Virus record (IMG/VR): IMGVR_UViG_3300039216_000106
Span: 721 to 64,720 of that record
Strand: one strand, 5' to 3'
Length of the DNA stretch: 64,000 nt
Origin: a virus
The notes beneath the pieces are model-generated. The model did not search any database. It was not told where the DNA came from and saw nothing but the letters and a program-made list of their open reading frames with translations. Positions 3,557 through 56,802 of the stretch are shown in pieces. Position 1 is the first letter of the stretch, and every line of letters begins with the position of its first letter. The position numbers and the translations under genes were made by a program.

Positions 3557-5524
3557 GTGGAAAATTATCGCATCGGCGTCGGAATTTACCTAACGAACCG
3601 GGTCTCCGGTGCGCTGGGCATGATCGCCGGTCACTTCGCCAAGACGGAAAAAGAGGCCGCGAAGCTTCGCAAGACGCTTCAGGAAATCAAGCTTCTTGGC
3701 CTGTCCGGCCTACTGATCGGCGGAGCGGGTTTTGCTGGGCTATACGCCATGAGCAAAATGGTGAACCATGCTAAGGAGTATGCGCACCAGCTCAACATTA
3801 TGAAAATGGCTGGCCTCTCCAATTTGGAGATGGCAGAGGCCACGGCGGCGGCGTGGAAAAACACGAAAGATGTCGTGATCTCGACGGCAACCGGAAATCT
3901 CAGCATATTGATGGACATGCGCAATGTGTTGAGCGGCGGCATGAAAGAAGCGCTGCCGATGCTCCCTATTGTGTCGAAGATCGCGGCAGTCATGGCGGCG
4001 TCGGGTGAGACCAAAATATCGTCCAACGCTCAAGGCATCGCTTTCGACGTGACCAAAGCAATGGACATCATGGGCCTCAACACTTTCGCGCAGATGCAGC
4101 ATGGCGCGGAAATGATGACCAAGGTCGTGACCGCATTCCAGAACCGTATTTCGCCATCGGCGATTGGCCAGACCTTGTATTACGCTCGGCAGGCCAGATA
4201 CAGCCCGGATGATTCGTTCACCTATGGTGTTGTCCCAACCATGATGCTGGAACGGGTCGGTGGCGGCGGGGCGTCTGGCAGCAAGGGTATCGGTCCCCAG
4301 TTGGCTGCGGTCAATCGCGTAGCTGTCATGGGCATCATGAACAAGAAGACGCAGGCGTGGTTCCATGATCTTGGTCTTTTGCACGGAAAGTCAGTCCGTA
4401 CCACGACTACAGGAACGATCACGGCCGGCCTAGACCACAAACAGGCTTGGCAGAATAACCAATTCTTTGCGACGTGGCGTGACTTGGTGCCCGCAATGGG
4501 GAAAAAGTTTGGCGAGGCGATCCTTAAAGACCCTGCCAAACTGCGAATGGCGATTACTGGCAGCAGTATGCAGCAGACCGCCATGTCACAGCTTATGGAA
4601 TACGTGACAAAGCCGGGCAACTTCCTTCGCGACATGTCGAATGTCGGCGTCATGCCAGCGCTCAAAGACTTGCCGCCGCTGCTTCAGGCTATCGCACAGA
4701 AGATGGGATTGCGTTCCGGCGGCGGAGCAATGGGGTATGAACAAGCCTATAAAATGGCCCTTTCAAACGACCCGCAAACGCAATTGTTGGGGCTTCAGTC
4801 TCAATGGAATAATCTGCTCACAGACATGGGTTTCCACCTCATGCCAACTCTGCTACCAATGCTTAAAGATTTCGTAAGTTGGCTTTCCGACTTAGTCCAA
4901 TGGATGCGGCAACACCCATCCATTGCGAAGGCTCTTATGTGGTCATTTTTTGGCCTCTCTGCCTCTATGATGTTTGGTGGCGTGGTGATGGGGCTAACCG
5001 CTGCATTTAAGGCATTAAGCCTTGTCCTTATCGGAAACGCTGGGGGTGGAATTGTTGCGGCGACATGGGCAGCGCGCGGAGGGCTACTTGGTCTTTTGGC
5101 GCCATTAGCGGCCGTCGCAGCAATTGTGGCTGTGTTTCAGCCAGGGAGGATTGGTTATGATCCGAAAGACCCTAAGAATATGAAGGAACAGCTTGATATT
5201 CGTGGTGGCGATCCGCAAGGGCACCCCAAGGGGCCGCTCTGGTATTTCTTCCATGACATGTTTTACGGCAAGGGCGTCGGCTCTCCTGCGACGAACACTC
5301 CGGGATGGACAACAAACACCGGAAAATATTTCAATCAGTCATCGCAAACACAGTCCCCAGACGCGCTTGCCGACGCGATCAAAAAGGCACTGAACGGTAT
5401 GACGGTCACCATGGACGGTCGCAAGGTGGGTTCCGTCGTTGCTGGTGGCATGGCAAAAAATGGCGGCAGCGTTTCGTTTGCGCCGTCCGGCTTTAACCCC
5501 GCACTCTCACCGGTGTTGCCATAA
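3557..5524 (+). CDS. Tail tape measure protein
   Basis: 655 aa, downstream of the chaperone. Helical N-terminal part, with Gly- and hydrophobic-rich segments in the C-terminal third. Confidence 0.8.
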   Translation: MENYRIGVGIYLTNRVSGALGMIAGHFAKTEKEAAKLRKTLQEIKLLGLSGLLIGGAGFAGLYAMSKMVNHAKEYAHQLNIMKMAGLSNLEMAEATAAAWKNTKDVVISTATGNLSILMDMRNVLSGGMKEALPMLPIVSKIAAVMAASGETKISSNAQGIAFDVTKAMDIMGLNTFAQMQHGAEMMTKVVTAFQNRISPSAIGQTLYYARQARYSPDDSFTYGVVPTMMLERVGGGGASGSKGIGPQLAAVNRVAVMGIMNKKTQAWFHDLGLLHGKSVRTTTTGTITAGLDHKQAWQNNQFFATWRDLVPAMGKKFGEAILKDPAKLRMAITGSSMQQTAMSQLMEYVTKPGNFLRDMSNVGVMPALKDLPPLLQAIAQKMGLRSGGGAMGYEQAYKMALSNDPQTQLLGLQSQWNNLLTDMGFHLMPTLLPMLKDFVSWLSDLVQWMRQHPSIAKALMWSFFGLSASMMFGGVVMGLTAAFKALSLVLIGNAGGGIVAATWAARGGLLGLLAPLAAVAAIVAVFQPGRIGYDPKDPKNMKEQLDIRGGDPQGHPKGPLWYFFHDMFYGKGVGSPATNTPGWTTNTGKYFNQSSQTQSPDALADAIKKALNGMTVTMDGRKVGSVVAGGMAKNGGSVSFAPSGFNPALSPVLP

Positions 5525-6402
5525 TGGCTGTCTTTGGACCAGACTTTGTCGTCAAGATCGGGGATGTGGAACTCTCCAACCTGGAGATTCCGGCCACCAT
5601 CAATTTCGGCGGCAAGCAGAAGATCGGCAAGCACCAGTTGCCGGGTGGCGCCCGCATTCTCGACGCCATGACGCAGGACGACGACGACATTACGTGGGAG
5701 GGCATGTTCACCGGCCCCGATGCGTTCGCCCGCGCGCGTCAATTGGACGGCTACCGCAAGACTGGCGAACAGGTCACGCTAAGCTATCACACGCTGAGCT
5801 ACACCGCGATTGTTGCTGAGTTCGTCGGCAATTTCGAGCGCTATTATCAGGTTCCGTACCGCATCGTTTTGATGGTGGTGGAAGATTTGTCTCTGCCGCC
5901 CGCGTTGTCGCCGGGCAACAGCGTCTTTGACCTCCTCAATTCCGATTTGGCGCAGACCCTGGAAACGGCGCTGGCGCTCGGCATGGGCATTTCTTCTGCT
6001 ATCCCAGGCCCCGTAGCGTCGTCGGTTGGCGTCAATCCGCAAACGCCCGGCATAACAGCGCCCGTCCTCACCTATGGCATGTCGCTTGACGACCTGGCCG
6101 CTGCGCTGACCGTGGTTCGCGAGGACACCGACGCCATTGTGACGCCAAGCGGCGTTACTGTCGCCAGCGTGGCGCAACTTGTGGCCGCGTTACAGGTGGC
6201 GCAGAACCAATGCGCCGCGCTCATGGCGGAATCCGAAACGGTTTTGGGCGTGGCCACCGTGCCGGGCGGCGTCACGGCAGGCAGTCCTGACCCGGCGGCG
6301 TTTCTGTCGTACCTCGCAACATGTGACCAAGCCGTTCAGATCAACCAGCAAGACGATTACCTGACCCGCATGAACCGAAACACCTCTTCGGGAGCGCTGT
6401 GA
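5524..6402 (+). CDS. Tail protein (gpU / DNA-circulation-like N-terminal domain)
   Basis: 292 aa. TAATG overlap with the tape measure gene. Sits between the tape measure and the gpX/gpD-like genes. Confidence 0.45.
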   Translation: MAVFGPDFVVKIGDVELSNLEIPATINFGGKQKIGKHQLPGGARILDAMTQDDDDITWEGMFTGPDAFARARQLDGYRKTGEQVTLSYHTLSYTAIVAEFVGNFERYYQVPYRIVLMVVEDLSLPPALSPGNSVFDLLNSDLAQTLETALALGMGISSAIPGPVASSVGVNPQTPGITAPVLTYGMSLDDLAAALTVVREDTDAIVTPSGVTVASVAQLVAALQVAQNQCAALMAESETVLGVATVPGGVTAGSPDPAAFLSYLATCDQAVQINQQDDYLTRMNRNTSSGAL

Positions 6403-6614: not shown

Positions 6615-7734
6615 CAATCCGTCGCCGCAATCGCAAGTCCGTTTTCCCTACGCCCGCGTTTTGCTGAACGGCAAGCCGGTGCAGAACTGGGAAACCGCGA
6701 TGGTGACCAAGAACGCGCACTACGTTTCCGATAATTGGTCGGTCGAACTCCCGATGAATGGCTTGGTCGCGCCCTTCGACGCCGCCTATTTCGGAACGCA
6801 AACCGACTTGCAGATGGAAATCCAGGCCGGGTTCAAGAATGCGGATGGCACGCTCGGGTCGCCGACTTCGCTGATCATCGGTGTAGTCGATGAAATTGAC
6901 GAAGATTTCCTGCGTGAAGACGGCAGTCAGATGATCGTGATGCGCGGGCGAGATTACACCGGCGCCTTGATCGATTCCATCGTCACGTTCACGTACAAAA
7001 ACATGACCTCAAGCCAAGTCGCGGCCAAGATCGCCGCAAACCATCCCGAACTGAAACCGAAGATCACGGCGACACACAAGAAGGTCGGTTCGTATTTCAA
7101 CAACGAAACGAACCTGGAAAGCCGGAAGATTTCGGAATGGGATTTGCTGACGCAACTGGCACAGGACGAAGGTTTTGTCATCCTGATCCGTGGCACTCAG
7201 CTTTACTTTGGACAGCCGGAAAAGCCAAACGAGACGAACCCGTACATCTTCAAATATGTGCCGCGCGATGCTGGGCAAGTGCTCCAATCGAACGTGTTGA
7301 CCCTGAAATGCACGCGCGCCCTAACCGTCGCGCGGGACGTGAAAGTCGTGGTGCAAAGCTTCAGCCGCGCCACAGGAAAGAAGGCAAAGGCAGAGGCCAG
7401 CGCCCTCAACCCGCTTCGCAACAACAGAACCGGCAACAAGGCGGGGACACAGATTTATTCGTATAACATTCCGAACAAGACGCACGCCCAATGCCAAGAT
7501 TTGGCAACTGCCTATCTCAAGCAGATCACAAAGCGGGAACGCGTCATCGAAATTTCCGCTCCCGGCGATCCGCTGCTCACTGACGATACTGTTATGAGCC
7601 TGACGGGGACAAATACGGCGTGGGACCAGTTTTATTTTGCAGACAGGATCGAGCACGAACTGAACGCCAACAGCGGATGGCTTATGCGGGTCAGGGCCAA
7701 GAACCATTCCACCAGTTCAACGCTTCCGACGTGA
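6604..7734 (+). CDS. Late control gene D-like tail/baseplate hub protein
   Basis: About 376 aa. ATG at 6604 is preceded by GGGGGTGGGA; an alternative GTG lies at 6595. The gpD/Mu P-like central region includes EWDLLTQLAQDEGFVILIRGTQLYF. Confidence 0.7.
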   Translation: MAVNNPSPQSQVRFPYARVLLNGKPVQNWETAMVTKNAHYVSDNWSVELPMNGLVAPFDAAYFGTQTDLQMEIQAGFKNADGTLGSPTSLIIGVVDEIDEDFLREDGSQMIVMRGRDYTGALIDSIVTFTYKNMTSSQVAAKIAANHPELKPKITATHKKVGSYFNNETNLESRKISEWDLLTQLAQDEGFVILIRGTQLYFGQPEKPNETNPYIFKYVPRDAGQVLQSNVLTLKCTRALTVARDVKVVVQSFSRATGKKAKAEASALNPLRNNRTGNKAGTQIYSYNIPNKTHAQCQDLATAYLKQITKRERVIEISAPGDPLLTDDTVMSLTGTNTAWDQFYFADRIEHELNANSGWLMRVRAKNHSTSSTLPT

Positions 7735-8202
7735 AAGACGTGCTTTGTCCGCTTTTTTCAACTTCTCTTTTTTCATCATAGCTTCGGCACCGCGGACTGC
7801 TTTGGCAATAACGTCCGCCCTTAAAAGCTGTGGTGGTATAACGGTAGTCACCGCCTGTGGTTTGGTCTTGCCGTGCTTTGCTTTAAGCGCACGATAGCGC
7901 TTTTCCCAGCGTGCTGCCGACAATTTGGCGCGCAGAATGATCGCCAGCAATTTCTTGTACGCCTTGATGTAGTGCAGTTTCTTGTCGCCGATGCGAGATG
8001 CGTTATAGATCACATCAACAAACTCTTCGTCTGTTTGTCTCTTGGCCTTTGGCGCAACTGGTGCTTTTGGTTTGGGGCGCATGAGTTCAATATCTCCCTC
8101 TCTCAATGGTTCTACCCTGACGAGAAACTGCTTGTCGCCACGCATAATGTAGGCAAATTCTGCCGGCTTGCTCGGGTTTTGTTCGGTCACAACACGCACC
8201 AC
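7717..8202 (-). CDS. Hypothetical Lys/Arg-rich protein (antisense insert in tail module)
   Basis: 161-aa ORF in a visibly lower-GC stretch. Its 3' end overlaps the gpD-like 3' end by 18 nt (convergent). Confidence 0.55.
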   Translation of the reverse strand: MVRVVTEQNPSKPAEFAYIMRGDKQFLVRVEPLREGDIELMRPKPKAPVAPKAKRQTDEEFVDVIYNASRIGDKKLHYIKAYKKLLAIILRAKLSAARWEKRYRALKAKHGKTKPQAVTTVIPPQLLRADVIAKAVRGAEAMMKKEKLKKADKARLSRRKR

Positions 8203-8777
8203 AGAATGATTACCAAGTTGACGACCGTTAAAGCGCTTCCGATGAGAGTGAGGCGTTTTGCCATACGTATTCTTCTGTCGTCATTGGTCGGTTTGACCGA
8301 TTGGGTGTGGCTGTGTTGTAGCTGCCTTTCCTCAATTTTACTTATTCTTTGCTCGAAGTACGATTCCGCACCGAAAAGAGTTTTTTTCATCCGTTCAAAA
8401 ACCTCGTTCTGATTTGCAGGGTTGCTTTTCGCTTCCTGCGTGGCCTTGGCGAACGCGGACGAAATCCATCTCTCCATGTCGCACATTTTCGTGTAGATCA
8501 TGTTTTCGACCGGGGATGGCTTGCGATCTTCCTGGGGCTCTTCCGGCGCCATTGGCAATCGCTCAAGTTCCGAACGTGCCGTCCGCTTATCATTCTTGTT
8601 GGGCAGCGGAATGACGTGTTTTCTGACGCGACCGTTTTGCCACGTCGTGATGATGCGCGCCGCTGGGTCGGCCTCCGTTTGCCGAATGACGCAAATCTCT
8701 TTGATTTGCGCGTCACCGATGGCTTGACCAAATCGGATGTGTGTCGTCAGGAAGTCTTGGAGTTTCACGCCTGTCAT
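8187..8777 (-). CDS. Hypothetical tail-anchored membrane protein (antisense insert in tail module)
   Basis: 196 aa with a C-terminal hydrophobic helix (LTLIGSALTVVNLVIILWCVL). Overlaps the downstream gene by 16 nt. Lower GC. Confidence 0.55.
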   Translation of the reverse strand: MTGVKLQDFLTTHIRFGQAIGDAQIKEICVIRQTEADPAARIITTWQNGRVRKHVIPLPNKNDKRTARSELERLPMAPEEPQEDRKPSPVENMIYTKMCDMERWISSAFAKATQEAKSNPANQNEVFERMKKTLFGAESYFEQRISKIEERQLQHSHTQSVKPTNDDRRIRMAKRLTLIGSALTVVNLVIILWCVL

Positions 8778-8809: not shown

Positions 8810-8849
8810 GTAACGCTCTGTGCGGTGTAACGCAAGGAAATTGTAACGC
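8810..8849 (+). promoter_or_regulatory. Three direct copies of the GTAACGC box (8810, 8827, 8843) in the divergent region upstream of the baseplate operon
   Basis: Copies are spaced 16-17 bp apart. The same box recurs in many other intergenic regions. Confidence 0.5.
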
Positions 8850-8947
8850 ACGGGCGCACTTTCGTCCCCGTCGCCCGTGCCAAATCGGCTTTGTACAAGG
8901 TGTTCTATTGGCTTATGGTCAGGACACAATCTCTGGGATGATGCGCC

Positions 8948-9969: not shown

Positions 9970-10011
9970 TGTGGATTTGTTGTAGGCTCGCGCCCAGAGG
10001 TTCGTAACGCA

Positions 10012-13911: not shown

Positions 13912-14456
13912 TCGATTGGGGATTTATCACGGAATTGGAAGGCCGCAGCCTCACCGGATACTGGCCGAAAGGATTCCAGGCGTCCGGCGTTACCGTGGCG
14001 GGCGGTGTTGACCTTGCCTATCTGTCGCCCGCGGAACTGGCCGCGCTGCCGCCCGATCTTCAAGCCAAGCTCAAGCCCTACCTTGGCGTCCGCGGCGACC
14101 GTGCCCAGCACTTGCTCAGCGGCCAGCCTTTGGTCCTGACCGCGGCCGAAGCCGACGCGCTGGAGGGTCCAAAGCGCAAGAGCATCATCACCTCCTTAAT
14201 TCTTCACTATTTCCAAGCCACAGGAACGCCGTTCAACAACCTTCCCGACGCGGCCCAAACCGTTTTGGCATCCGTGGCCTGGCAGTACGGCAGGCCGGAA
14301 GTGCGCTGCCCGGCCTTTTGGAAAGCGGCTTGCGCCCAAGACTGGCACGCCGTAATCCTTCAGCTATGTGATTTTGGTGATGCGTTTCACACGCGGCGCT
14401 GCCGTGAGGCCGACTATCTCGAAACCAACATTGTAACGCAAGAGGTAACGAAATGA
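13908..14456 (+). CDS. Endolysin candidate (pesticin-type / lysozyme-like muramidase)
   Basis: ATGA overlap at its start. ITELEGRSLTGYWP...SGVTVAGGVDLAY resembles the lysozyme-like pesticin C-terminal domain. Sits directly upstream of the holin and spanin candidates. Confidence 0.55.
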   Translation: MIDWGFITELEGRSLTGYWPKGFQASGVTVAGGVDLAYLSPAELAALPPDLQAKLKPYLGVRGDRAQHLLSGQPLVLTAAEADALEGPKRKSIITSLILHYFQATGTPFNNLPDAAQTVLASVAWQYGRPEVRCPAFWKAACAQDWHAVILQLCDFGDAFHTRRCREADYLETNIVTQEVTK

Positions 14457-14641
14457 GTATCATTCAAAACTTGACCGCAGAAAAGCAGAAGATCGTCGCC
14501 GACGCGCTGAAAATCTACACCACGGCCGATGATGACGTGAAGGCTGCGATTGCCAAAGGCACATCGTGGGCGGCGCGGAACATGTGGTACGTGGTGCTTG
14601 GCACTGCGGTGGTTTTCTTCGTGATTGGGCTAATTGCCTGA
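14453..14641 (+). CDS. Holin candidate (small protein with one TM helix)
   Basis: 62 aa with C-terminal TM helix WYVVLGTAVVFFVIGLIA. ATGA overlap with the endolysin gene. Confidence 0.5.
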   Translation: MSIIQNLTAEKQKIVADALKIYTTADDDVKAAIAKGTSWAARNMWYVVLGTAVVFFVIGLIA

Positions 14642-16666: not shown

Positions 16667-17074
16667 TCAATCCTTGCCAGCGAGCTGGCACGCGAGGTCA
16701 AGAACGGCTTTGCGCTGGCCTGTTGAGATGACACTGAATGCCACCAGAAGGTTTAGCGCGCCCGGTTCGTTGAGTGCTTTAAGGGCATCCATAGCGACGG
16801 GCTTGCCGGACTGATCGTTGTCGAGGTCACTGATAAGCGACGACACTGAGCATTGCAGCGTGGCCGCAATCTGAACGAGCCGTGAAAAGCTCACGCGGTT
16901 CGCGCCATGCTCGTATTTTTGCACCTGTTGAAACGTGATGTCACCGCAGAGTTTTCCGAGGTCTTCTTGCGACAGACCAAGTTCCTTGCGGCGCAACCTG
17001 ATCCGCGCGCCCAGCGCAACATCAAGCGGGTGTGGACCATTTTCCTTCGCGGTGATACGTGTTCTTGCAGCCAT
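16667..17074 (-). CDS. XRE-family HTH transcriptional regulator (repressor candidate)
   Basis: ALGARIRLRRKELGLSQEDLGKLCGDITFQQVQKYEHGANRVSFSRLVQIA is a classic HTH_3 pattern. AGGAGGG RBS lies 7 nt upstream of the ATG at 17074. Confidence 0.8.
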   Translation of the reverse strand: MAARTRITAKENGPHPLDVALGARIRLRRKELGLSQEDLGKLCGDITFQQVQKYEHGANRVSFSRLVQIAATLQCSVSSLISDLDNDQSGKPVAMDALKALNEPGALNLLVAFSVISTGQRKAVLDLACQLAGKD

Positions 17075-17618: not shown

Positions 17619-17803
17619 AGCGACCCGCGCTCAGGTTCCAACCGGCCGCCGCACGCCGGGCAGCCGTCATCGCTCGTTTCCTTCGGCGCCGCGAACAGGT
17701 CAGACCGTGGCTTTGTCGCGCGGCCGCGCTCATAGTCCAGGCTGGCCGCGTGCCATTTCCGGCCACAGGATGCGTTCTGGCAGCGGAAAAAATCCGAACT
17801 CAT
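17600..17803 (-). CDS. Small zinc-ribbon protein
   Basis: 67 aa with CxxxxC...CPAC. ATGA overlap with the upstream exonuclease stop. Confidence 0.45.
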   Translation of the reverse strand: MSSDFFRCQNASCGRKWHAASLDYERGRATKPRSDLFAAPKETSDDGCPACGGRLEPERGSLCEDRV

Positions 17804-18537
17804 TGCGCTGCCTTCTGGGTTCGGACCTTCAGCCAGTGCTTCGCGTTGGCCTTGATATCGCGGTCCATGTCGCTCTTGTCCACGATCCACGATAGGTAAT
17901 CGAGCGGGACATCATCCCACTTGGCGCCCTTGTGCTTGCCGAAATTCACGCGCGGGAGCAGCGCCGGGCCGTTCGACCATCGAACCATGTCATCGATCGA
18001 GACTTTCCCCGATTCCAGTTCCATAACCAGAAGGTGCGCCGTAACATAGGCGTCGGGGCCGGCGCGGTGCGGCGGCATGGCGAGCGTTTCGTCATCAATC
18101 TGTAACGGGAGGAAGTAACGCAGGAATTGGTTGCTGTGGTGGCTGGCGTCGGGCCAAAGGCGTAACGCGACCTTGAAAGTGCAGATCCATTTCACGTCGT
18201 TCGTGATGAACTTGCGCTCAAAATCGGCGTTGTGGGCTGCGAAGTAATTTGCGCCGCCGCCCATCACATTGGCCAGAACATCGGCGGCCGTGGGCATCGC
18301 GGCAACTTCCGCGTCTCGGATATGGTGGACCGCCATGGCTTCCGGCGGGATCGGGCGCCCTGGGTTGCAGAGTTGCGATCCCCACCGGCCCGGTTCAATC
18401 CAAGCCCGCACCGCACCCGGAACCGGGTCATCCAGTTTGACCGCAATATCACACCAGCCGATTTCGACAATTTCGGCGCCGCCCTCGGCTTCCGGCATTC
18501 CCGTCGTTTCACAATCGATCGAGCGTATCCTGATCAT
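17800..18537 (-). CDS. DEDDh 3'-5' exonuclease (DnaQ/ExoX-like) with extra C-terminal domain
   Basis: Contains SIDCETTG (Exo I), AAHNADFERKF (Exo II) and HRAGPDAYVTAHL (Exo III, H-x4-D). The C-terminus is KHKGAKWDDVPLDYLSWIV. Confidence 0.8.
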   Translation of the reverse strand: MIRIRSIDCETTGMPEAEGGAEIVEIGWCDIAVKLDDPVPGAVRAWIEPGRWGSQLCNPGRPIPPEAMAVHHIRDAEVAAMPTAADVLANVMGGGANYFAAHNADFERKFITNDVKWICTFKVALRLWPDASHHSNQFLRYFLPLQIDDETLAMPPHRAGPDAYVTAHLLVMELESGKVSIDDMVRWSNGPALLPRVNFGKHKGAKWDDVPLDYLSWIVDKSDMDRDIKANAKHWLKVRTQKAAQ

Positions 18538-18764
18538 TTCACCCGCACCCCTTTGACCATGTCCGCCAGTTCACACCCGACCGCGCCAGCAATCCGCGCC
18601 AGTTCAAACAGCGGCACCGGCCGCTCCCCGCGTTCGTAACGCGAGATTTCCGAAAAGTCCCTGCCGGCGCATTTGGCCAGCGCTTCAAGGGTAAGGCCAG
18701 CGCTGATGCGCCGCGCCCTGATTCTGGCGCCGATCTCGGTGTAGAATTTGGCTTGCTTGGTCAC
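18534..18764 (-). CDS. XRE-family HTH protein (small)
   Basis: GTG start at 18764 is preceded by GAGGTGA. Contains IGARIRARRISAGLTLEALAKCAGRDFSEISRYERGERPVPLFEL. Confidence 0.65.
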   Translation of the reverse strand: MTKQAKFYTEIGARIRARRISAGLTLEALAKCAGRDFSEISRYERGERPVPLFELARIAGAVGCELADMVKGVRVK

Positions 18765-26212: not shown

Positions 26213-26338
26213 ATCCGGGTCCTCGTGACTGACAAGCAAGCGTTACACCCGGCTTGTCGCGGTGGCAAGAGAATAATTCGCCCGTACCGAAATTATTTTG
26301 CTTGCGTCGGACACCGGCCCCGCGGTATTCATAATGGC
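26213..26338. promoter_or_regulatory. Divergent early control region with inverted repeat AATAATT-N12-AATTATT (26272-26297) and one GCGTTAC box (26240)
   Basis: 126-bp gap between the leftward operon and the rightward Cro-like gene. CATAAT lies 2 nt (26336-26337) upstream of the rightward ATG at 26339. Confidence 0.4.
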
Positions 26339-26614
26339 ATGATGCTACGAACCTGGCGCAAAGAGCGCAAATTGACCTTTGAGAAAGCGACAGAAGCCCT
26401 TGGCGTCGGCTCGCAAAGCAGCGTCTACGACTGGGAAAACGGTATATCTCTGCCAAATCCTGAAACGATTTCCCAGATTGAAGGCGCGACGGACGGCTTG
26501 GTTACTTTCTTCGACCACTTTACCGCGTGGTGCCTCGCACACAAGGGTTTGCGCCGCGAAAGGCTGGCCGCCGGTCGGCGCGCGGCGAAGGAATGGGAAG
26601 ACGCACATGGCTAA
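26339..26614 (+). CDS. Cro/CI-type HTH regulator, first gene of the rightward operon
   Basis: Contains MMLRTWRKERKLTFEKATEALGVGSQSSVYDWENGISLPNPETISQI, an HTH_XRE pattern. Confidence 0.7.
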   Translation: MMLRTWRKERKLTFEKATEALGVGSQSSVYDWENGISLPNPETISQIEGATDGLVTFFDHFTAWCLAHKGLRRERLAAGRRAAKEWEDAHG

Positions 26615-27836: not shown

Positions 27837-29230
27837 ACGAATATCAAAAGTTTCTCGCACACAAAGCGCAACTCGGTTCCAATGATGGGTTTAAGCCTAT
27901 CGTAATGCCGTCGTTTTTGTTCAACTTTCAACAAGCACTAGTCGAGTGGGCTATCCACAAGGGACGTGGCGCCATCTTTGCCGACTGCGGCATGGGCAAG
28001 ACGCCGATGCAATTGGTATGGGCTGAAAACGTCGTTCGCAAGACGAATAAGCCTGTGTTGATCTTGACGCCGCTGGCCGTCGCACAACAGACCTGCAGAG
28101 AGGCGAAGAAATTCGACATTGAGGCTCATGTTTCGCAAGACGGAACAGTACATCCCGGCATCAACATCGTAAATTATGAGCGCCTACACTACTTTGACCA
28201 ATCCGTTTTTGCTGGCGCCGTATGTGACGAAAGTGCCATTCTCAAATCGTTTGACGGCGCGAGGCGGCAAGAGATAACCGAATTCATGCGGCGGATGCGG
28301 TATCGTCTTCTTTGCACGGCAACGCCATCACCGAACGAATACATCGAGTTGGGAACGAGTAGCGAGGCTCTTGGCTATCTCGGTTACATGGATATGTTGA
28401 GCCGGTTTTTCAAAAACGACCAAGGCAATTCGATCAAGGCTCACATCATCCGGCACAAAGGGAAGTCTTTCCGGGCGTTGGATGAGGGGGCAAAATGGCG
28501 CTTCAAGGGGCACGCCGAAGGTCCGTTCTGGAAATGGGTTTGCTCGTGGGCGCGCGCCATTCGCAAGCCTTCCGACCTCGGATTTGATGACGGCGCATTT
28601 ATTCTCCCGCCGCTGATCGAACGTCAGCACATGGTTGACGCACAATCGCTTCCTGACGGAACTCTGTTTGCGCTTCCCGCTGTTGGCTTACAAGAGCAAC
28701 GTGAGGAGCGGCGGCGCACCATTCAAGAGCGATGTGAAAAGGCCGCGTCCCTGGTCAATAAAACCGGGCGGCCGGCGACTGTGTGGTGCAGCTTGAACGA
28801 CGAAGGAAATCTGCTCGAGAAGTTGATCCCGGATTGCGTACAGGTGAGCGGCGCCGATAGCGACGACGCGAAAGAGGTGAAGTTTCTGGCCTTTGTCGAT
28901 GGTAGCGCGCGGGTACTGGTAACGAAGGAAAAAATCGGTGCATGGGGGCTGAACTTCCAGCACTGCGCACATTCCGTCTCGTTCCCAACCCACTCGTTTG
29001 AAGGATACTACCAAGGCATTCGGCGCTTCTGGCGCTTCGGACAGAAAAACCCCGTCAGATCCGATATTGTTGCGACCGAAGGAGAAAAAAACGTGCTGGA
29101 TAATTTGCAGCGCAAATCAAAGGCTGCGGACAAGATGTTTGCGGGGCTTATCGCATACATGAACGAAGCCCAGGGCGTTGACCGCAGCGTTAAATTCACC
29201 AAGAAAGAGGAGTTTCCGTCGTGGCTATAG
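27833..29230 (+). CDS. SNF2/DEAD-like superfamily-2 helicase
   Basis: GTGA start. Motif I is ADCGMGKTPMQL and motif II is VCDESAILKS. C-terminal helicase motifs include VSFPTHSFEGYYQGIRRFWRFGQ. Confidence 0.8.
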   Translation: MNEYQKFLAHKAQLGSNDGFKPIVMPSFLFNFQQALVEWAIHKGRGAIFADCGMGKTPMQLVWAENVVRKTNKPVLILTPLAVAQQTCREAKKFDIEAHVSQDGTVHPGINIVNYERLHYFDQSVFAGAVCDESAILKSFDGARRQEITEFMRRMRYRLLCTATPSPNEYIELGTSSEALGYLGYMDMLSRFFKNDQGNSIKAHIIRHKGKSFRALDEGAKWRFKGHAEGPFWKWVCSWARAIRKPSDLGFDDGAFILPPLIERQHMVDAQSLPDGTLFALPAVGLQEQREERRRTIQERCEKAASLVNKTGRPATVWCSLNDEGNLLEKLIPDCVQVSGADSDDAKEVKFLAFVDGSARVLVTKEKIGAWGLNFQHCAHSVSFPTHSFEGYYQGIRRFWRFGQKNPVRSDIVATEGEKNVLDNLQRKSKAADKMFAGLIAYMNEAQGVDRSVKFTKKEEFPSWL

Positions 29231-30219
29231 CGAACAGCGACATCACAAATCGGTGGGCCATCTATAACGGTGATTGCATCGAGGTTATGCAGAAAATGCC
29301 AGCGGAAAAAATACACCTGTCGGTCTATTCTCCGCCATTCGGCGGCTTGTTCCAATATTCAAGCTCTGACCGTGACCTGTCAAACTGCCTGGACTACGAC
29401 AAGTTTTTTGAGCATTACGCCTTTGTCGTTCGTGAGTTGGCGCGACTGACTTTGCCGGGGCGTATGACGGCGGTTCACTGCATGGACGTTCCATCCGGCA
29501 ACACTGGAACAGATTACCTTGTCGATTTCCCCGGTGACATCATCCGTCTACACCAAAAAGAGGGGTGGAATTTCGTCGCCCGTTACGCCGTGTGGAAGGA
29601 ACCTCTTGCGGTGCGCAATCGCACAATGGCAAAAAACTTGGCCCACCGATCCTTGGTCGAAGATAGCTCGAGGTGCAGTGTAGCATCCGCCGACTATTTG
29701 CTCGTGTTCCGGCGCAAGGGAAAAAATCCAATCCCCATCACGCACCCCACCGGATTGATGGAATACGCAGGCGAGCGGCGCCCACCAAACGACGTTCTGC
29801 AATGGCGAGGCCATACGGGAAACCAGATCGAAAACCGTTTCTCACATTGGATTTGGCGACAATACGCTTCGGCGTTCTGGGATGACATCCGCATCGGTCG
29901 CGTGCTGCCGTTCCGGGATTCTAAGGATGAGATGGACGAAAAGCACGTCCACCCGTTACAGCTTGACGTGATCGATCGCGTCCTTGTCCTTTGGAGCAAC
30001 CCCGGTGAAACTGTGTTCACGCCTTTTATGGGTGTCGGTTCCGAGGTCTATTCTGCCGTCAGGAACGGCCGGAAGGCGCTTGGCGTCGAATTGAAAGCAA
30101 GCTATTACGAACAGGCTGTTCGCAACATGCGCGCCGTTGATGTTCCAGAGGCAGACCAATCGATATTCGAGTTTGCGGAAGACAAACCGATGGACGAAGA
30201 ACTTGAAATAAAACCGTGA
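29221..30219 (+). CDS. Beta-class N6-adenine or N4-cytosine DNA methyltransferase
   Basis: Motif IV (SVYSPPFGG) precedes motif I (VFTPFMGVGSE), which is the beta-class order. Confidence 0.8.
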   Translation: MAIANSDITNRWAIYNGDCIEVMQKMPAEKIHLSVYSPPFGGLFQYSSSDRDLSNCLDYDKFFEHYAFVVRELARLTLPGRMTAVHCMDVPSGNTGTDYLVDFPGDIIRLHQKEGWNFVARYAVWKEPLAVRNRTMAKNLAHRSLVEDSSRCSVASADYLLVFRRKGKNPIPITHPTGLMEYAGERRPPNDVLQWRGHTGNQIENRFSHWIWRQYASAFWDDIRIGRVLPFRDSKDEMDEKHVHPLQLDVIDRVLVLWSNPGETVFTPFMGVGSEVYSAVRNGRKALGVELKASYYEQAVRNMRAVDVPEADQSIFEFAEDKPMDEELEIKP

Positions 30220-30473
30220 CCACGAACCGCCGCCAGCACATAGCCGAGAAGATCGGCAAAGAGGTAACGGGGTTACGCGGGGCGCTGTTTGTGCATGTCG
30301 ATTATCTGGAGGTTGGCGGCCGGCGCCAGGTTGTCGATGTCCGGGTAAGTGAAAAGCGGAAGGACGGCAGCACCATGGACATCGTTTTGAACGCGGTGAG
30401 CGACACGATCACGCGCATCATCCGGGAGGAAATCAACCCGTCGAATGTGGTCAAGATTGAGGTTAAGCCATGA
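30216..30473 (+). CDS. Hypothetical protein
   Basis: 85 aa with GTGA overlap with the methyltransferase stop. Confidence 0.45.
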   Translation: MTTNRRQHIAEKIGKEVTGLRGALFVHVDYLEVGGRRQVVDVRVSEKRKDGSTMDIVLNAVSDTITRIIREEINPSNVVKIEVKP

Positions 30474-30913
30474 GCCCACGCAATACAATCTGGGGTGAGG
30501 CTCAAGTCTCAACCCTGACGATATTCTGGCCGCACGCCAGCGCGGTTGAAATTGCCGGGATGCTAGGGCCGCAGTTTACCAAAAACGCGGTGATTGGGAA
30601 GGCGTTCCGGCTTGGCCTGCCAAAAATACCGGCCGCCGAGCGCCAGCGGAGGACATCCGAGGGTAGGAAGTCCGATCGGCCGGCCGATGAAACGCCGTGC
30701 GACGAACCAGATCCCCAACAACCCGCCGCGACGGTAACCTACCAGGGCCGCGAAATGCCCGTCTCAGAAGCCCACAGGCTATCAGGCACGGCAATTGCTC
30801 TGTCGGTGGTAAAGCAGCGGCTTGGCATGGGGTGGCCACTCATGCGGGCGCTGACGCACGGATTGGGGTGTCGGAAGGGTAGTTGCTCGGTTCGGCCGTT
30901 GGTGCGGGACTAG
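30470..30913 (+). CDS. GcrA-like protein (N-terminal DNA-binding domain conserved)
   Basis: W.EAQVSTLTIFWPH.ASAVEIAGMLGPQFTKNAVIGKAFRLGL matches the GcrA N-terminal signature (..NAVIGK.HRLGL). Confidence 0.65.
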   Translation: MSPRNTIWGEAQVSTLTIFWPHASAVEIAGMLGPQFTKNAVIGKAFRLGLPKIPAAERQRRTSEGRKSDRPADETPCDEPDPQQPAATVTYQGREMPVSEAHRLSGTAIALSVVKQRLGMGWPLMRALTHGLGCRKGSCSVRPLVRD

Positions 30914-37135: not shown

Positions 37136-37303
37136 ATGGAGACCGCACTCCTCGCGCTCTACATCGTCGGTGTTATCGCGTTCGCGCTGATCGCAAACCG
37201 GCACTCACGGTCGCCTCTGGCGATCATCACCATAGCGGCGGCTTGGCCTGCGGCGGTGATTTTGTTTGCGATAGAGGTTGTAACGCGGCGAAAGCTGGTG
37301 TAA
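37136..37303 (+). CDS. Possible 55-aa two-TM membrane peptide
   Basis: METALLALYIVGVIAFALIAN...LAIITIAAAWPAAVILFAI. Not in the ORF track because it is under 60 aa. Confidence 0.3.
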   Translation: METALLALYIVGVIAFALIANRHSRSPLAIITIAAAWPAAVILFAIEVVTRRKLV

Positions 37304-38011: not shown

Positions 38012-38341
38012 ATGCGATCAATCCCCACCATTCTATTCCTCGCTATGTTCGCCATTGGTCCGGCCATGGCCTGGGACGCCTACGGCACGCTGCGGCTCAA
38101 GGCTGACACCACGGTCTGCTTCCGCACCCCGACCGAGGTTCAGACCGCGGCCGGATCGGTTGAACTCGGCAAGGATCAATGCCTGACGGTGCGCGCCGAT
38201 GCGCCGCCGCAACCGGTAACCACTGGATTTTCCGATGAATTTCTGGCGTCAATCGGGTTCCACCGCTGCGGCGACGGTCCCAGCGGCAATCTCTACTGCT
38301 ACGCGCCGCCGGCCGCGCCCCGCCCAAAAGAAAAACCGTAA
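38012..38341 (+). CDS. Secreted protein (signal peptide)
   Basis: MRSIPTILFLAMFAIGPAMA-WD is a signal peptide with an AxA cleavage site. Confidence 0.5.
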   Translation: MRSIPTILFLAMFAIGPAMAWDAYGTLRLKADTTVCFRTPTEVQTAAGSVELGKDQCLTVRADAPPQPVTTGFSDEFLASIGFHRCGDGPSGNLYCYAPPAAPRPKEKP

Positions 38342-38823
38342 TGTCGGTTTGGACCCAGGAACTCTGCGACGAAGCCAAGCGAATCTATGTCGTTGACGGT
38401 TATTCCGCGAGTGTCACGGCCAGGATCATCAACACAGCTCACGGCACCACTTTCAGCCGCAACGCTGTGATTGGGAAACTTGCGCGGCTCGGCATTCTCG
38501 GCACAATACCGGAAAGGTCCCGCACTTTCAACCGTTTGCACCGTCCAAAGCAGGTTAAAGACCGCCCGACCCAGCGCATCACCTACAGCCCATCCGAGTT
38601 ACGCGGCGTTACCGATCTTGAGCCCACCGGCCCTGTCCGGGATTTTCCGCCGCGCGGTGGTTGTCAGTTCATGACCGGCGAGCCCGGAGAACCTGACTGG
38701 CGCATGTGCGGCCGCCCCGGCTATCCATGGTGTCCAGAGCACCGTAAGATCGTCTTTCAGCCGCAGTCGAAACAGGCCAGTGTCAGTGCCGACCCTGCGC
38801 CGGCACAATCGGAAGCGGCGTAA
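38341..38823 (+). CDS. gcrA: GcrA-family cell-cycle-regulator homologue (full length)
   Basis: The N-terminus is W....C.EAKRIY..DGYSASVTARII......FSRNAVIGKLARLGI. The C-terminus (GGCQFMTGEPGEPDWRMCGRPGYPWCPEHRKIVFQPQ) matches the GcrA C-terminal motif. Confidence 0.75.
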   Translation: MSVWTQELCDEAKRIYVVDGYSASVTARIINTAHGTTFSRNAVIGKLARLGILGTIPERSRTFNRLHRPKQVKDRPTQRITYSPSELRGVTDLEPTGPVRDFPPRGGCQFMTGEPGEPDWRMCGRPGYPWCPEHRKIVFQPQSKQASVSADPAPAQSEAA

Positions 38824-41585: not shown

Positions 41586-41633
41586 TTGTAACGCAATTTA
41601 ATGTTTCAGACATGTAATCAGTCTTGCGTTACC
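41586..41633. promoter_or_regulatory. Inverted pair of the box: cTTGTAACGCAA (41586-41597) and cTTGCGTTAC (41623-41632)
   Basis: 9-bp arms GTAACGCAA/TTGCGTTAC are separated by 28 nt, just after the terminase stop. They are followed by the small GC palindrome GGCCCGGCGGGCC. Confidence 0.45.
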
Positions 41634-42291: not shown

Positions 42292-42450
42292 ATGCCTGTT
42301 TACGATTGCGGAGACCCAGAATGTACCGAATGCCAAAAAGCGTTCGGGCCTAATCGCTCCAAAGCTATCGCCAATTTCAAGGCGCGGGAACGTGAGTACG
42401 ATCGGATAGCGCGCGAAAATCGGGAACTCGCCAACAATGACGCCCGCTGA
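42292..42450 (+). CDS. Possible 52-aa Cys-knuckle protein
   Basis: Starts MPVYDCGDPECTECQKAF. Overlaps the next gene. Not in the ORF track. Confidence 0.35.
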   Translation: MPVYDCGDPECTECQKAFGPNRSKAIANFKAREREYDRIARENRELANNDAR

Positions 42451-42649
42451 CTTCAAATCCGGCCGGAATGCGCTTGGCCTGTCCATTGCCGAACTGGCCG
42501 TGGCCCTCGATACTGACCCGCGCACCATCCGCAAATGGGAGGCTCTGCACGGTAACAGCGCGCGGCCACCGAACCCGATTGCGTGCCGGGTGCTCGGTTG
42601 GATGCTGGCCGGTTTTCGGCCGCCTGAATGGCCGGAAGGCAAGCGGTGA
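42437..42649 (+). CDS. Small HTH (XRE-like) protein
   Basis: Contains FKSGRNALGLSIAELAVALDTDPRTIRKWE. Confidence 0.55.
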   Translation: MTPADFKSGRNALGLSIAELAVALDTDPRTIRKWEALHGNSARPPNPIACRVLGWMLAGFRPPEWPEGKR

Positions 42650-42673: not shown

Positions 42674-42722
42674 GCGTTACATAGCGGCGAGATCGCTTGC
42701 CGGAATTACGGACGTGCGTTAC
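42674..42722. promoter_or_regulatory. Two GCGTTACA boxes (42674, 42716) in the 127-bp gap upstream of the 42777 gene
   Basis: Same-orientation copies 42 bp apart in non-coding DNA. Confidence 0.4.
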
Positions 42723-43605: not shown

Positions 43606-43995
43606 ATGACCAACCACCCGAACAGAAAGAAGACCGCGGCCCCGCTGCACTGGCGGCAGGGCGACGTACTGCTTGTCGCCACGGATCGGATTCCGGCCGA
43701 CGCCGCGCCGGTCGGACGCGACGAACACAACCGCTTGGTCCTCGCCAACGGCGAAGTCACCGGCCACGCCCACGTCTTCCGCGGCAAGGGCATCTGCGGT
43801 TTCACCAAACTCGACAACAAGGACATCGAATACCTTCTGGTCGAGACCGGTGGCGGTTCCGGCGCCACGCTCAAGCACGAGTTGGTCAGCGGCGCCAAGG
43901 CCGACCATGATCCGCAGCAAATTCCGGACGGCAAATATCTGCTTGGCCAGCAGGTCGAGTATACGCCGGCAGAACTTATCCGTGCGAGCGACTAA
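43606..43995 (+). CDS. Hypothetical beta-rich protein (QGDVLL...GEVTGHAH family seen in phages)
   Basis: 129 aa with an AGGAAAG RBS. Motifs are WRQGDVLLV, LANGEVTGHAH and HDPQQIPDGKY. Confidence 0.5.
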   Translation: MTNHPNRKKTAAPLHWRQGDVLLVATDRIPADAAPVGRDEHNRLVLANGEVTGHAHVFRGKGICGFTKLDNKDIEYLLVETGGGSGATLKHELVSGAKADHDPQQIPDGKYLLGQQVEYTPAELIRASD

Positions 43996-43996
43996 C

Positions 43997-45289
43997 ATGG
44001 CACAAAAACTCGAACTCACAGACGAGCGAAAAGCCATCATCACTGCTTCGCTCGAAGAGTGGATGGCAGCTGGACTGTCCACTGCGCCGGCTGATTTTGG
44101 TGCGGCAGAGGAAGCCATTGCCGTCCTCTATAGCCACATCGGCCGTAAGCGGCCCCATTTTGTTCGGCTCAGTTCTCCGCTCGGTGCAGAACTTTACATA
44201 AACTTGCTTTGTCAAACTTGGCCCAAGGTTGATTTGAAGTCGCTCAGGGACCAGCTCAGGGACCAGCTCGGGGGCCAGCTCTGGGACCAGCTCGGGGACC
44301 AGCTCGGGGACCAGCTCGGGGACCAGCTCGGGGGCCAGCTCGGGGACCAGCTCGGGGGCCAGCTCAGGGACCAGCTCGGGGACCAGCTCTGGGACCAGCT
44401 CGGGGGCCAGCTCGGGGACCAGCTCTGGGACCAGCTCGGGGGCCAGCTCGGGGGCCAGCTCAGGGACCAGCTCGGGGACCAGCTCTGGGACCAGCTCGGG
44501 GGCCAGCTCGGGGACCAGCTCTGGGACCAGCTCAGGGACCAGCTCGGGGGCCAGCTCAGGGACCAGCTCAGGGACCAGAAACTGAACTATATGGGAACGT
44601 GGTTCTGGGGCCAATGGGATTATTTATGGGCATGGCTGGATGGTGGTCGCCGGATTGGCGCTCATTACGATGACAAGCAGAACGCCATGCTTGATGCACA
44701 CTGCACACTAGTCAAATCGTGCGGCTGGTTTTATCCGTTCGATGATTTCTGCATCATCACGGATCGACCGGAAATTATCGCGCGTGATGATCGTGGGAGG
44801 CCGCACTCTGACAATGGCCCTGCACTACGTTATCGTGACGGCTACAGTCTGTACGCGTCACATGGCGTGCGGGTCCCGACCGATCTTGGCGTTGACCACT
44901 CCAAGATCACGGTAGCGCGGATCGACGCGGAACAGAATGCCGAGGTCCGTCGAGTTTTGATCGGCTGGTTCGGCATGGACCGGTATTTGCGGGAATCTGG
45001 CGCTACGGTTGTGCATGAGGACTTTGACGCGCTGGGCAATCCGCGGCGCCTGTTCCGGCGTGAACAGCCGGACGACGAAGCGATTGTCGCCGTTGAGGTG
45101 ACGGATTCGACACCGGTTCCGGATGGTGAGGCCAGAAAGTATGTGATGCGCGTTGATCCGACCAAGTATGACGGCCGCGCTGGCCGGGAGTGCCACGCTG
45201 CGATTGCATCGACGTGGCGGCGCAAGGATGATCTGTCCAAGATGATGTTTGCACGACCCGAGGATTATGCACCGGTAGGCGAGACGTGA
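43997..45289 (+). CDS. Tetrapeptide-repeat protein with DUF6745-like C-terminal domain (by recollection)
   Basis: 430 aa. About 80 aa of N-terminus are followed by 28 x (R/G/W)(D/G)QL. The C-terminal domain is WFWGQWDYLWAWLDG...CGWFYPFDDFCIITDRPE...NGPALRYRDGYSLYASHGVRVP. Confidence 0.7.
   Translation: MAQKLELTDERKAIITASLEEWMAAGLSTAPADFGAAEEAIAVLYSHIGRKRPHFVRLSSPLGAELYINLLCQTWPKVDLKSLRDQLRDQLGGQLWDQLGDQLGDQLGDQLGGQLGDQLGGQLRDQLGDQLWDQLGGQLGDQLWDQLGGQLGGQLRDQLGDQLWDQLGGQLGDQLWDQLRDQLGGQLRDQLRDQKLNYMGTWFWGQWDYLWAWLDGGRRIGAHYDDKQNAMLDAHCTLVKSCGWFYPFDDFCIITDRPEIIARDDRGRPHSDNGPALRYRDGYSLYASHGVRVPTDLGVDHSKITVARIDAEQNAEVRRVLIGWFGMDRYLRESGATVVHEDFDALGNPRRLFRREQPDDEAIVAVEVTDSTPVPDGEARKYVMRVDPTKYDGRAGRECHAAIASTWRRKDDLSKMMFARPEDYAPVGET
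44246..44578 (+). repeat. Tandem array of about 27.75 copies of a 12-bp unit [A/G/T]GGG[A/G]CCAGCTC, in frame
   Basis: Read directly from the sequence. Only two positions of the 12-mer vary (nt 1 and nt 5). Confidence 0.95.
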
Positions 45290-45525
45290 CCATGACACTC
45301 AGCGCAGAAGACTTTACCGCGATTGGTGTTCTGCTCGCCGGCCCAGACTGGAAACTACCGGTATCGAAAATGCTCGGCATCAACGAGCGGACGGTGCGGC
45401 GCTGGGCGAGCGGCGAGGCTGCGGTGCCGTCTGGCGTTGTTCCGCAACTTGAGGAACTTTGCCGGTCTCACGCGACCGATCTGTTGATGTCGGCGCACCG
45501 GCTCAAGGCAATAAAGGTGAAGTGA
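45286..45525 (+). CDS. Small HTH-like protein
   Basis: Contains VSKMLGINERTVRRWASGEAAVP. GTGA overlap with the repeat-protein stop. Confidence 0.5.
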   Translation: MTMTLSAEDFTAIGVLLAGPDWKLPVSKMLGINERTVRRWASGEAAVPSGVVPQLEELCRSHATDLLMSAHRLKAIKVK

Positions 45526-45993: not shown

Positions 45994-46175
45994 GCGATGT
46001 TCCAACCATCACCACGTTCATGGGCAAAAACGTCGAGGACATGACGCGAGATGAGTTGATCGACGCCGTGAAGTGTTTGGGCAATATGGTTCAGTCGATG
46101 AGGCGCTGCCAAGAAATTCAGCGTGAGATTGATGAACATCGGCGCCAGCGCTCGGCCGAATATGTGGGTTTGTAA
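45990..46175 (+). CDS. Hypothetical protein
   Basis: 61 aa with ATGA overlap. Confidence 0.4.
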   Translation: MSDVPTITTFMGKNVEDMTRDELIDAVKCLGNMVQSMRRCQEIQREIDEHRRQRSAEYVGL

Positions 46176-46232
46176 CTCCCGCCCAACCGGTTTACATTCT
46201 GCATTCCGCGTTACAACCATCGGGCGCCCCGC

Positions 46233-51923: not shown

Positions 51924-51997
51924 TAACGCGTTACATCATTCCCCGTTTGTAAGTTCCGCCGGTTGCGATAAACTGCGCACCGAAAGGTTCGTAACGC
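51924..51997. promoter_or_regulatory. Perfect palindrome TAACGCGTTA (51924-51933) plus a GTAACGC box abutting the ATG at 51998
   Basis: aaAGGTTCGTAACGCATG here and gaGGTTCGTAACGCAATG at 9997-10014 share a 14-nt string. Confidence 0.45.
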
Positions 51998-56769: not shown

Positions 56770-56802
56770 AATTACAAACCAACGATTTGAGGACATTGAC
56801 CT

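Follow-up and report, generated by a model that had tools for sequence, protein, structure and literature searches.

The stretch of viral DNA considered here, positions 721 to 64,720 of the IMG/VR record IMGVR_UViG_3300039216_000106 (64,000 nt; hereafter, the window), contains a short asymmetric word, GTAACGC, which occurs far more often than expected and is concentrated in the gaps between late genes. Its extended form, YGTAACGC (the box), is proposed to be the site of a private phage regulator that acts on late-region transcription, a reading that, drawn from sequence, has about an even chance of being correct. As the box is real, enriched, concentrated in late gaps and specific to this phage, the binding site of a phage regulator is the most economical explanation for it. 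A preliminary description of the window had suggested the operator or promoter element of a phage-specific regulator; the regulator site is retained here, but the promoter element as such is not.

On both strands together, GTAACGC is found 38 times (19 plus, 19 minus), whereas dinucleotide-preserving shuffles of the 64,000-nt window yield a mean of 7.49 copies (standard deviation 2.61, maximum 16), which agrees with the earlier estimate of about 4 copies per strand. The comparison with shuffled and Markov backgrounds that had been proposed as a check has therefore revealed strong enrichment. GTAACGC is the top over-represented 7-mer of the window, and the longer words that outrank it, the leading 8- and 9-mers, come from a 12-nt tandem repeat within one gene. 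The longer forms TGTAACGC (16 copies against 2.0 expected under a third-order Markov model) and TTGTAACGC (8 copies against 0.47 expected) are also in excess. All 18 coordinates listed in the preliminary description (10 plus, 8 minus) are exact matches, but the remainder, put there at roughly a dozen more copies inside genes, amounts to 20. Within coding sequence, 21 copies stand against 6.7 (about 3-fold) in 300 shuffles that kept the protein sequence and the codon usage of each gene, none of which reached 21. The excess of the box argues for selection on the DNA word itself.

The shape of the element is best seen in the 19 copies that lie in gaps or at gene boundaries. Immediately 5' of the G, 13 of them have T and 5 have C, so that a pyrimidine is found in 18/19, in line with the T or TT reported before most copies; the base two positions 5' of the G is T in 10/19, and the base 3' of the final C is A or G in 14/19. 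Information is confined to columns -2 to +8, other columns within 12 nt being uninformative. The intergenic consensus is therefore Y-G-T-A-A-C-G-C, a short and asymmetric element that is used in both orientations and is clustered.

It could be argued that no protein binds the box, and that it is a compositional or mutational quirk, a methyltransferase target or a Chi-like recombination signal. The phage encodes two methyltransferases of unassigned specificity, which could suit a methylation target, and RecT, an exonuclease and NinB, which could suit a recombination signal. However, the excess survives the dinucleotide, third-order Markov and synonymous-codon controls, the density in gaps (30 times chance, see below) and the tight clustering are unexpected for composition or Chi, and the word lacks strand polarity. 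Moreover, targets of methylation or restriction are normally avoided, as many palindromes are in this window, and not accumulated. This explanation is the least probable of those weighed here.

The position of the boxes relative to genes was determined on a map that merges our own gene calls with those, made independently, that accompany the source contigs; the two agree, and the most generous version was used. Intergenic DNA makes up 5.8% of the window on this map (3710 nt), consistent with the fraction below 10% given earlier, and it holds 13 of the 38 copies of GTAACGC (binomial P=1.1e-7) and 9 of the 16 copies of TGTAACGC (P=5.8e-8). The density of GTAACGC is 3.5/kb in gaps and 0.41/kb in genes, against 0.12/kb by chance. 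The intergenic bias described previously is thus strong, but the claim that gaps hold more than half of the copies was overstated, since they hold 34%, or 50% (19/38) when six near-boundary copies are included. Two of these six (14433, 37280) are within about 20 nt of a stop codon, and the other four (26870, 56759, 57877, 57912) are in short or doubtful open reading frames (ORFs).

Among the 24 gaps of at least 40 nt, 8 bear a box (13 copies), and 7 of these 8 belong to the late region, which bears out the concentration before late and structural operons that had been reported. The eighth is the divergent early control gap, so that only one of the seven early-region gaps is boxed, and no copy of GTAACGC is found between 18.7 and 26.2 kb or in the stretch from 26.9 to 37.3 kb that contains the replication genes. 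Several box-bearing gaps come after a hairpin or after insertions on the reverse strand, places at which transcription would require a new promoter. The earlier labels of the genes concerned (gpV-like, gpJ-like baseplate, terminase, scaffold, capsid and biotinyl-domain) are broadly right; the portal label finds no match in PHROG or Pfam, and is supported by the size of the protein and by its conserved position in two related contigs, L298 and L299. The individual sites are listed in Table 1.

Table 1. Box sites, promoter-like strings and candidate reader proteins in the window (box positions relative to promoter-like strings are approximate)
Feature	Position	Strand	Context
Coding pair, 35 bp apart	6152-6193	-	Within gene 5524-6402
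Triple direct box	8810-8849	+	Copies 8810, 8827, 8843; in 182-nt divergent gap between reverse gene 8187-8777 and gpV-like gene 8960
Box in AGGTTCGTAACGCA	10004-10010	+	Between ribosome-binding site and ATG of gpJ-like baseplate gene (10012)
TTGTAACGC	14433-14439	+	Last 24 nt of Pesticin-domain (lysozyme-like) gene; 20 nt before ATG 14453 of the putative holin gene (14453-14641); GTAACG variant at 14445
Coding pair, 47 bp apart	18115-18168	+	Antisense in exonuclease gene 17800-18537; another copy, 18636, in Cro-like helix-turn-helix gene
Box in divergent early control gap 26213-26338	26240-26246	-	Centre of inverted repeat GACAAGC/GCTTGTC (26231-26258)
TTGTAACGC	37280-37286	+	3' end of 55-aa ORF, followed by GTAACGT at 37300; start of rightward late region with GcrA-like gene
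Inverted box pair	41588-41632	41588 +, 41626 -	Just 3' of large terminase stop; 51-89 nt before next gene; followed by G+C-rich hairpin
Two direct boxes (42674, 42716)	42674-42722	-	Downstream of 70-aa helix-turn-helix gene 42437-42649, upstream of gene 42777
Box	46208-46214	-	25 nt before portal ATG; ~+6 of the promoter-like string at 46170-46198
Divergent box pair	51928-51997	51928 -, 51991 +	Flanks the promoter-like string at 51947-51974; centres ~-50 and ~+13
Box	56759-56765	+	Spacer of the promoter-like string at 56744-56772, centre ~-17; 44 nt before scaffold gene
Two in-frame coding copies (56827, 56866)	56827-56872	+	First 70 nt of scaffold gene; both encode P-V-T-P with GTA valine codon
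Inverted pair	57877-57918	57877 +, 57912 -	5' part of small reverse-strand gene 57718-57951; ~70-110 nt upstream of capsid promoter
Box in capsid leader	58024-58030	-	~+39 from TTGACA-N17 promoter at 57953
Promoter-like TTGTAA-N17-TACATT	46170-46198		Portal
Promoter-like TTGTAA-N16-TAAACT	51947-51974		Biotinyl-domain gene
Promoter-like TTGAAG-N17-TAGAAT	56744-56772		Scaffold; best sigma-70-like match
Candidate reader, GcrA-family protein	38341-38823	+	DNA-binding and sigma-70-interacting domains; recognition helix SRNAVIGKLARLG
Second GcrA-family protein	30482-30913	+	DNA-binding domain only; recognition helix TKNAVIGKAFRLG; same gene string as methyltransferase 29221-30219
Helix-turn-helix protein, CI-like	16667-17074
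Helix-turn-helix protein, Cro-like	18534-18764
Helix-turn-helix protein	26339-26614
Helix-turn-helix protein, 70 aa	42437-42649
Helix-turn-helix protein, weaker	45292-45525

The boxes are frequently grouped. Pairs no more than 70 bp apart number 11, against about 1.5 under random placement (our own arithmetic on the copy coordinates), and three of these pairs lie within genes; their spacing ranges from 16 to 68 bp, mostly as direct repeats and without helical phasing. The triple array, whose spacing of 17 and 16 bp agrees with the preliminary description, is separated by 33-72 nt from the start codon of gene 8187-8777, on the reverse strand, and its third copy is adjoined by a 9-nt inverted repeat (8848-8856 / 8872-8880). 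The 14-mer AGGTTCGTAACGCA is, as had been pointed out, common to the sites adjoining the start codons at 10012 and 51998, the second of which belongs to the biotinyl-domain gene and is adjoined by box 51991. The box is also independent of the direction of transcription, as the late-region gaps hold six plus and six minus copies, though almost every flanking gene is on the plus strand.

This arrangement bears directly on the main rival explanation, which is considered unlikely, and which holds that the boxes are scattered operators of a repressor that silences the late region and the reverse-strand insertions. Its candidates are the CI-like and the 70-aa helix-turn-helix proteins (Table 1), and repression would be exerted by occupancy of promoter spacers or of the DNA immediately after start sites. 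A large number of dispersed asymmetric sites, mainly in short gaps but in part within genes, is what such a system would display, and the pairs and triplets suggest cooperative binding. At promoter-like strings the boxes lie at -17 (spacer), +6 and +13, positions typical of steric repression, one box is in the early divergent control gap, and several helix-turn-helix proteins are encoded. Against it, the orientation of the boxes is independent of transcription, whereas the stoperators of phage L5 are polar, and only one early-region gap is boxed. XRE-type proteins usually bind palindromes, and the early gap already has two separate ones that could serve them; furthermore, the proteins scanned include neither an integrase nor a recombinase, so that lysogeny is at most presumed.

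Two repressor systems offer the closest comparison for such dispersed sites. The stoperators of the gp71 repressor of mycobacteriophage L5, reportedly described by Brown and colleagues in 1997, are said to be 13-bp asymmetric sites oriented with transcription. They resemble the box in that one asymmetric site is present in dozens of copies, mostly in short gaps and with the late region included, but the box is shorter (7-8 bp) and is used in both orientations; no homolog of gp71 was seen in the window, in which no search aimed at one was made. The C1 operators of phage P1 are asymmetric, dispersed sites of 17 bp, present in 14 to 17 copies. Like the box, they are distributed genome-wide, single or paired and in either orientation; they differ in length and in number, and no C1-like protein has been identified in the window.

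As for the early control gap itself (26213-26338), it contains two perfect 7-nt inverted repeats, GACAAGC/GCTTGTC, whose arms are 14 nt apart with the box at their centre, and AATAATT/AATTATT, with arms 12 nt apart. Only 5 nt separate the end of a CATAAT hexamer from the ATG of the helix-turn-helix gene 26339, which suggests that the leader is very short or missing.

The short asymmetric shape of the box, its occurrence in both orientations, its clustering and the poor folding of the corresponding RNA all point to an element that is read by a protein at the DNA level, rather than to a signal in RNA or to a promoter hexamer. A structured RNA element was rejected because there is no general hairpin, the Rfam and transfer RNA scans of the window gave no matches, and four of the five box regions tested fold no better than shuffles; the only one that does is the inverted pair 41588/41626 after the terminase gene (z -2.8).

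A promoter element, whether of sigma-70, of extracytoplasmic function (ECF)-type or of a phage polymerase, was rejected as well. The box faces either way in a region with a single direction of transcription, it is not accompanied by a -10-like element at constant distance, and the promoter-like strings place it variably, so that the promoter option of the preliminary description does not hold. In particular, seven of the eight copies of TTGTAACGC have no -10-like hexamer 16-18 nt from their TTGTAA. A CtrA-like reading (xTAA-N7-TAAT) suits only two copies and was discarded too. The portal and biotinyl-domain promoter-like strings share the 16-mer GTTTGTAANTNCCGCC; it was rejected as a second motif, since it has only two exact copies in the window, and is best read as the -35 regions of the two strings. 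The best-supported promoter is that of the capsid gene (TTGACA-N17 at 57953), which recurs with a similar leader in L298 and L299. The box is near promoters, in no single register: it is centred at about -17, +6 and +13 of the three promoter-like strings, which are weak predictions, and at about -108, -73 and +39 of the conserved capsid promoter. The MotA box of phage T4 middle promoters, in contrast, replaces the -35 element at a fixed position (about -30) and in a fixed orientation, and the phage box is variable in both. The two would be alike in being short asymmetric boxes used with the host sigma-70 polymerase and a phage-encoded monomeric reader, which is here only proposed.

The triple array, with its iteron-like spacing of 16-17 bp, also raises the question of whether the boxes are iterons for an initiator or for the small terminase subunit, the array then being an origin or a pac site. 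Arrays with a GTAACG(C) core are indeed present in four unrelated viral or metagenomic contigs (L184, L268, L260 and L312); nevertheless, the proteins encoded at those arrays have no homolog in the window, and the matches of the scan of viral and metagenomic sequences for triple arrays are mostly plain tandem repeats that hold the word by chance. In the window, the copies are spread over the whole 64 kb instead of being clustered at one place, they are absent from the segment of the replication genes, and the triple array is in the tail region, at 54% G+C and with no adjoining A+T-rich stretch for unwinding. Iterons are therefore regarded as very improbable.

The four contigs deserve a description of their own. 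In L184 (4880-5240) and L268 (590-1010), the arrays are inside 5' ORFs that, by eye, putatively resemble replication-protein genes; in L260 (3970-4240), the array is beside a large ORF, read by eye as a putative primase-helicase, next to an A+T-rich stretch; and in L312 (150-290), it is upstream of an ORF that looks by eye like a putative large terminase. These arrays contain both orientations, some of them are in ORFs with an RYR(E/Q)R motif in which the repeats spell V-T or N-V-T, and they look like origin or pac iterons.

The phage-specific nature of the box, which had been assumed in the preliminary description, was addressed in relatives of the phage. These comprised, by terminase, 80 viral contigs (IMG/VR) and 18 GTDB genomes, 51-68% identical and mostly from Alphaproteobacteria, together with 80 viral contigs retrieved with the baseplate J-like protein, and the contigs of portal homologs. 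L298 and L299, which are the closest relatives, have portal proteins 63% and 61% identical to that of the window and are syntenic from portal to capsid. The density of GTAACGC is 0.094/kb in 2.48 Mb of related loci, against 0.59/kb in the window, and no excess was detected in the terminase set, in the J-like set, in L298 and L299 or in the prophage-bearing stretches of the 18 GTDB genomes. In L298 and L299, the capsid promoter is retained, as is the small reverse-strand gene that precedes the capsid gene, but the box is missing there. Since the relatives keep the promoter and lack the box, the box is a lineage-specific addition, as would fit a lineage-specific reader. Copies of the phage from at least three samples are 100% identical, so that microdiversity offered no substitutions to compare, and a literature search for the box word returned only primers.

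The interval between scaffold and capsid genes has a common organization in the window (57439-58133), L298 (17580-18030) and L299 (16600-17080), where a small reverse-strand gene for a membrane-like peptide, a TTGACA-N17 string and a leader, AAGTCCGGG..GGC, are found. In the window, this interval also contains about 280 nt with no convincing ORF and no Rfam match.

It could alternatively be proposed that the box is the site of a global regulator or nucleoid protein of the alphaproteobacterial host, and that the phage has accumulated it to exploit that factor. The phage looks adapted to a CcrM-bearing alphaproteobacterium, since GANTC occurs 69 times where 262 copies would be expected, and its terminase relatives are mostly alphaproteobacterial. 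A switch of host would yield a private motif, and an excess in coding sequence as well as in gaps would suit a factor with many genomic sites. The prophage-bearing stretches of the 18 GTDB genomes, however, are not enriched. To our knowledge, none of the alphaproteobacterial consensuses (CtrA, DnaA, LexA, EcfG-type sigma, Fur/Irr and others) matches the box, which also counts against a host factor, and this origin of the box is considered improbable.

If the regulator is encoded by the phage, the members of the GcrA family are the candidates that best fit a single asymmetric site of 7-8 bp. GcrA of Caulobacter crescentus is a monomer whose sigma-4-like helix-turn-helix recognizes the 7-bp asymmetric YGAKTCG (m6A-GANTC), and its only direct base hydrogen bonds link R33 with the G of YG and R42 with the G that pairs with the C of CG (PMC5887438). 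The protein rides on sigma-70 via its C-terminal domain (PMC5887438, PMC9976885), and the promoters that it activates have the site in the spacer (at about -20 or -30) or at +5 to +30, with no fixed register (PMC9976885).

The preliminary description could not match the box to a described consensus. This remains true of its three central bases, which are TAA and not AKT, so that the box has neither a GANTC nor a CcrM methylation site, but Y-G-TAA-C-G and YGAKTCG are both 7-bp asymmetric words with the same Y-G-NNN-C-G frame. A further difference is the eighth base, C, preferred in the box. Among all YGNNNCG words, TGTAACG is the most enriched in the window, where the canonical YGAKTCG has three copies and none in gaps; canonical GcrA sites or GANTC at late promoters were rejected as an explanation, because they are absent there. 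Neither the box nor the GcrA site has a fixed register or orientation relative to the promoter.

The window encodes two GcrA-family proteins. The first one (38341-38823) matches Pfam GcrA (8.6e-14) and NCBIfam sig70cofacGcrA, and aligns to GcrA structures of the Protein Data Bank (PDB) across both domains; its gene precedes that of the large terminase by 1.5 kb and is found close to where the rightward late region begins. It keeps R33, N34, I37, G38, K39 and R42, and hence both base-contacting arginines, and differs from GcrA in the replacement of H41 by A and in a longer turn, with four to five residues inserted before the recognition helix. As no close homolog was found among 5.8 billion protein clusters, this protein is as private as the box. 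The second one (30482-30913) has K at 33, F at 41 and R at 42. It belongs to a gene string (29221-30913) that consists of an N6/N4 methyltransferase, an 85-aa ORF and this paralog with only the DNA-binding domain, and that looks like a possible writer-reader pair; the methyltransferase (29221-30219), with 39 bits, falls far short of the CcrM cut-off of 830 and is no ortholog of that enzyme.

From these data we infer that a protein binds the box and regulates transcription, and the following model is proposed for it. The reader would bind single asymmetric sites of 7-8 bp, whichever way they face; a control region would often have two or three of them, at or beside weak sigma-70-type promoters, and the target of the reader would be the late (virion and lysis) part of the genome. 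The most likely reader is the GcrA-like protein 38341-38823, a tentative assignment with well below an even chance within the private-regulator reading. Its C-terminal domain would ride the host RNA polymerase, whereas its sigma-4-like helix-turn-helix would read the box as a monomer, helping the polymerase to load at nearby promoters, and the paralog 30482-30913 could compete for the same sites. In a more elaborate version, the phage would own a private writer-reader pair, in which the methyltransferase 29221-30219 methylates an adenine in YGTAACGC and the cofactor 38341-38823 has diverged so as to read this mark instead of m6A-GANTC, so that late transcription would start only after replication and methylation; this version is rather improbable.

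Several observations weigh against a late-gene regulator of this kind, and in particular against a GcrA-like one. As many as 25 copies are within genes, mostly mid-gene, and many boxes are, unlike GcrA sites, far from any recognizable promoter. Strings resembling sigma-70 promoters are no commoner in the window than in shuffles, and those predicted at box sites are weak, with 8-9/12 matches. The triple array is 77-116 nt upstream of the sole plus-strand promoter-like string in its gap, and, at the capsid promoter, all three boxes are outside the positions reported for GcrA. The recognition helix of the phage GcrA-like proteins is near-canonical and gives no reason for a change of the central bases from AKT to TAA, and a box without GANTC offers no obvious substrate for the methyl-reading component of GcrA action. 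There are alternative readers as well, namely the five helix-turn-helix proteins and many proteins of no assigned function; a GapR-like protein is also encoded. The chance that the shared Y-G-NNN-C-G frame is a coincidence, which is about 5% by our own arithmetic, is slight and is likewise counted here. Finally, in a cross-phage comparison that started from 80 viral loci with a GcrA-type DNA-binding domain, dispersed private 7-mers were no commoner in viral loci with a GcrA-like gene (4/57) than in loci chosen by structural genes (8/114).

Three loci (L440, L452 and L489) with GTAAC-rich matches were dismissed as a palindrome, local iterons or chance. A different dispersed word is present in the 14.4-kb IMG/VR contig L480, which has a GcrA-type gene (recognition helix SRNAVIGKCTRMG) and 13 copies of the asymmetric TAGGCCC in both orientations, against 1.1 expected. 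In L452 (3268) and L456 (8140), the codons of the GcrA recognition helix (T-R-N-A-V) spell CGTAACGC, a coincidence that is not repeated in the two genes of the window.

A regulator site would provide a ready map of control points in an uncultured 64.6-kb alphaproteobacterial myovirus-like phage without a close relative, and would indicate that control words can arise and spread within one lineage, since the relatives keep promoters without the box. The kind of element is already known; the possible re-targeted GcrA reader would be a new variant of it. Such a reader would imply that the GcrA fold is able to abandon methylated GANTC for another target, and that phages can switch on late genes with a cofactor that rides sigma-70 and not with a classical activator. 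Were the writer-reader pair true, its reader would be the first case of a re-targeted GcrA-family protein, and the phage would own a methylation switch for its late genes.

With only about 590 nt missing, the window covers, in circularly permuted form, a phage genome of about 64.6 kb. In the source contig (L504), the gene cut at the window end is followed by a 79-aa gene and then by the sheath gene found at window position 62; because the capsid locus thus continues through head-tail genes into the tail sheath, the genome is taken as near-complete and circular or terminally redundant. Its gene set is that of a contractile-tailed phage (sheath, tape measure, gpV-, gpW- and gpJ-like baseplate proteins, terminase, scaffold and capsid), with a leftward early block that includes RecT, exonucleases and NinB, and a rightward early block with the GapR-like protein, a helicase, the methyltransferase and a DUF1376 protein.

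Two minus-strand genes (7717-8777) interrupt the series of tail and baseplate genes, with the triple box just upstream. They encode a 196-aa protein with a C-terminal membrane anchor and a very basic 157-aa protein, neither of which has a Pfam or PHROG match, and no close relatives of the product of 8187-8777 were found in the viral contigs searched. An accessory block between terminase and portal includes the DUF2939/DUF6745 gene 43907-45289, in which the 12-nt unit GCTCGGGGACCA is repeated 28 times in tandem (44242-44578, 90% matches). The scarcity of GANTC, which is 3.8-fold depleted in the whole window, is accompanied by that of several palindromes (observed/expected: CCCGGG 0/29, GTGCAC 0/21, GGGCCC 1/27, CACGTG 1/22 and GCATGC 2/35), and both depletions suggest that the phage avoids sites for restriction or for the CcrM of an alphaproteobacterial host.

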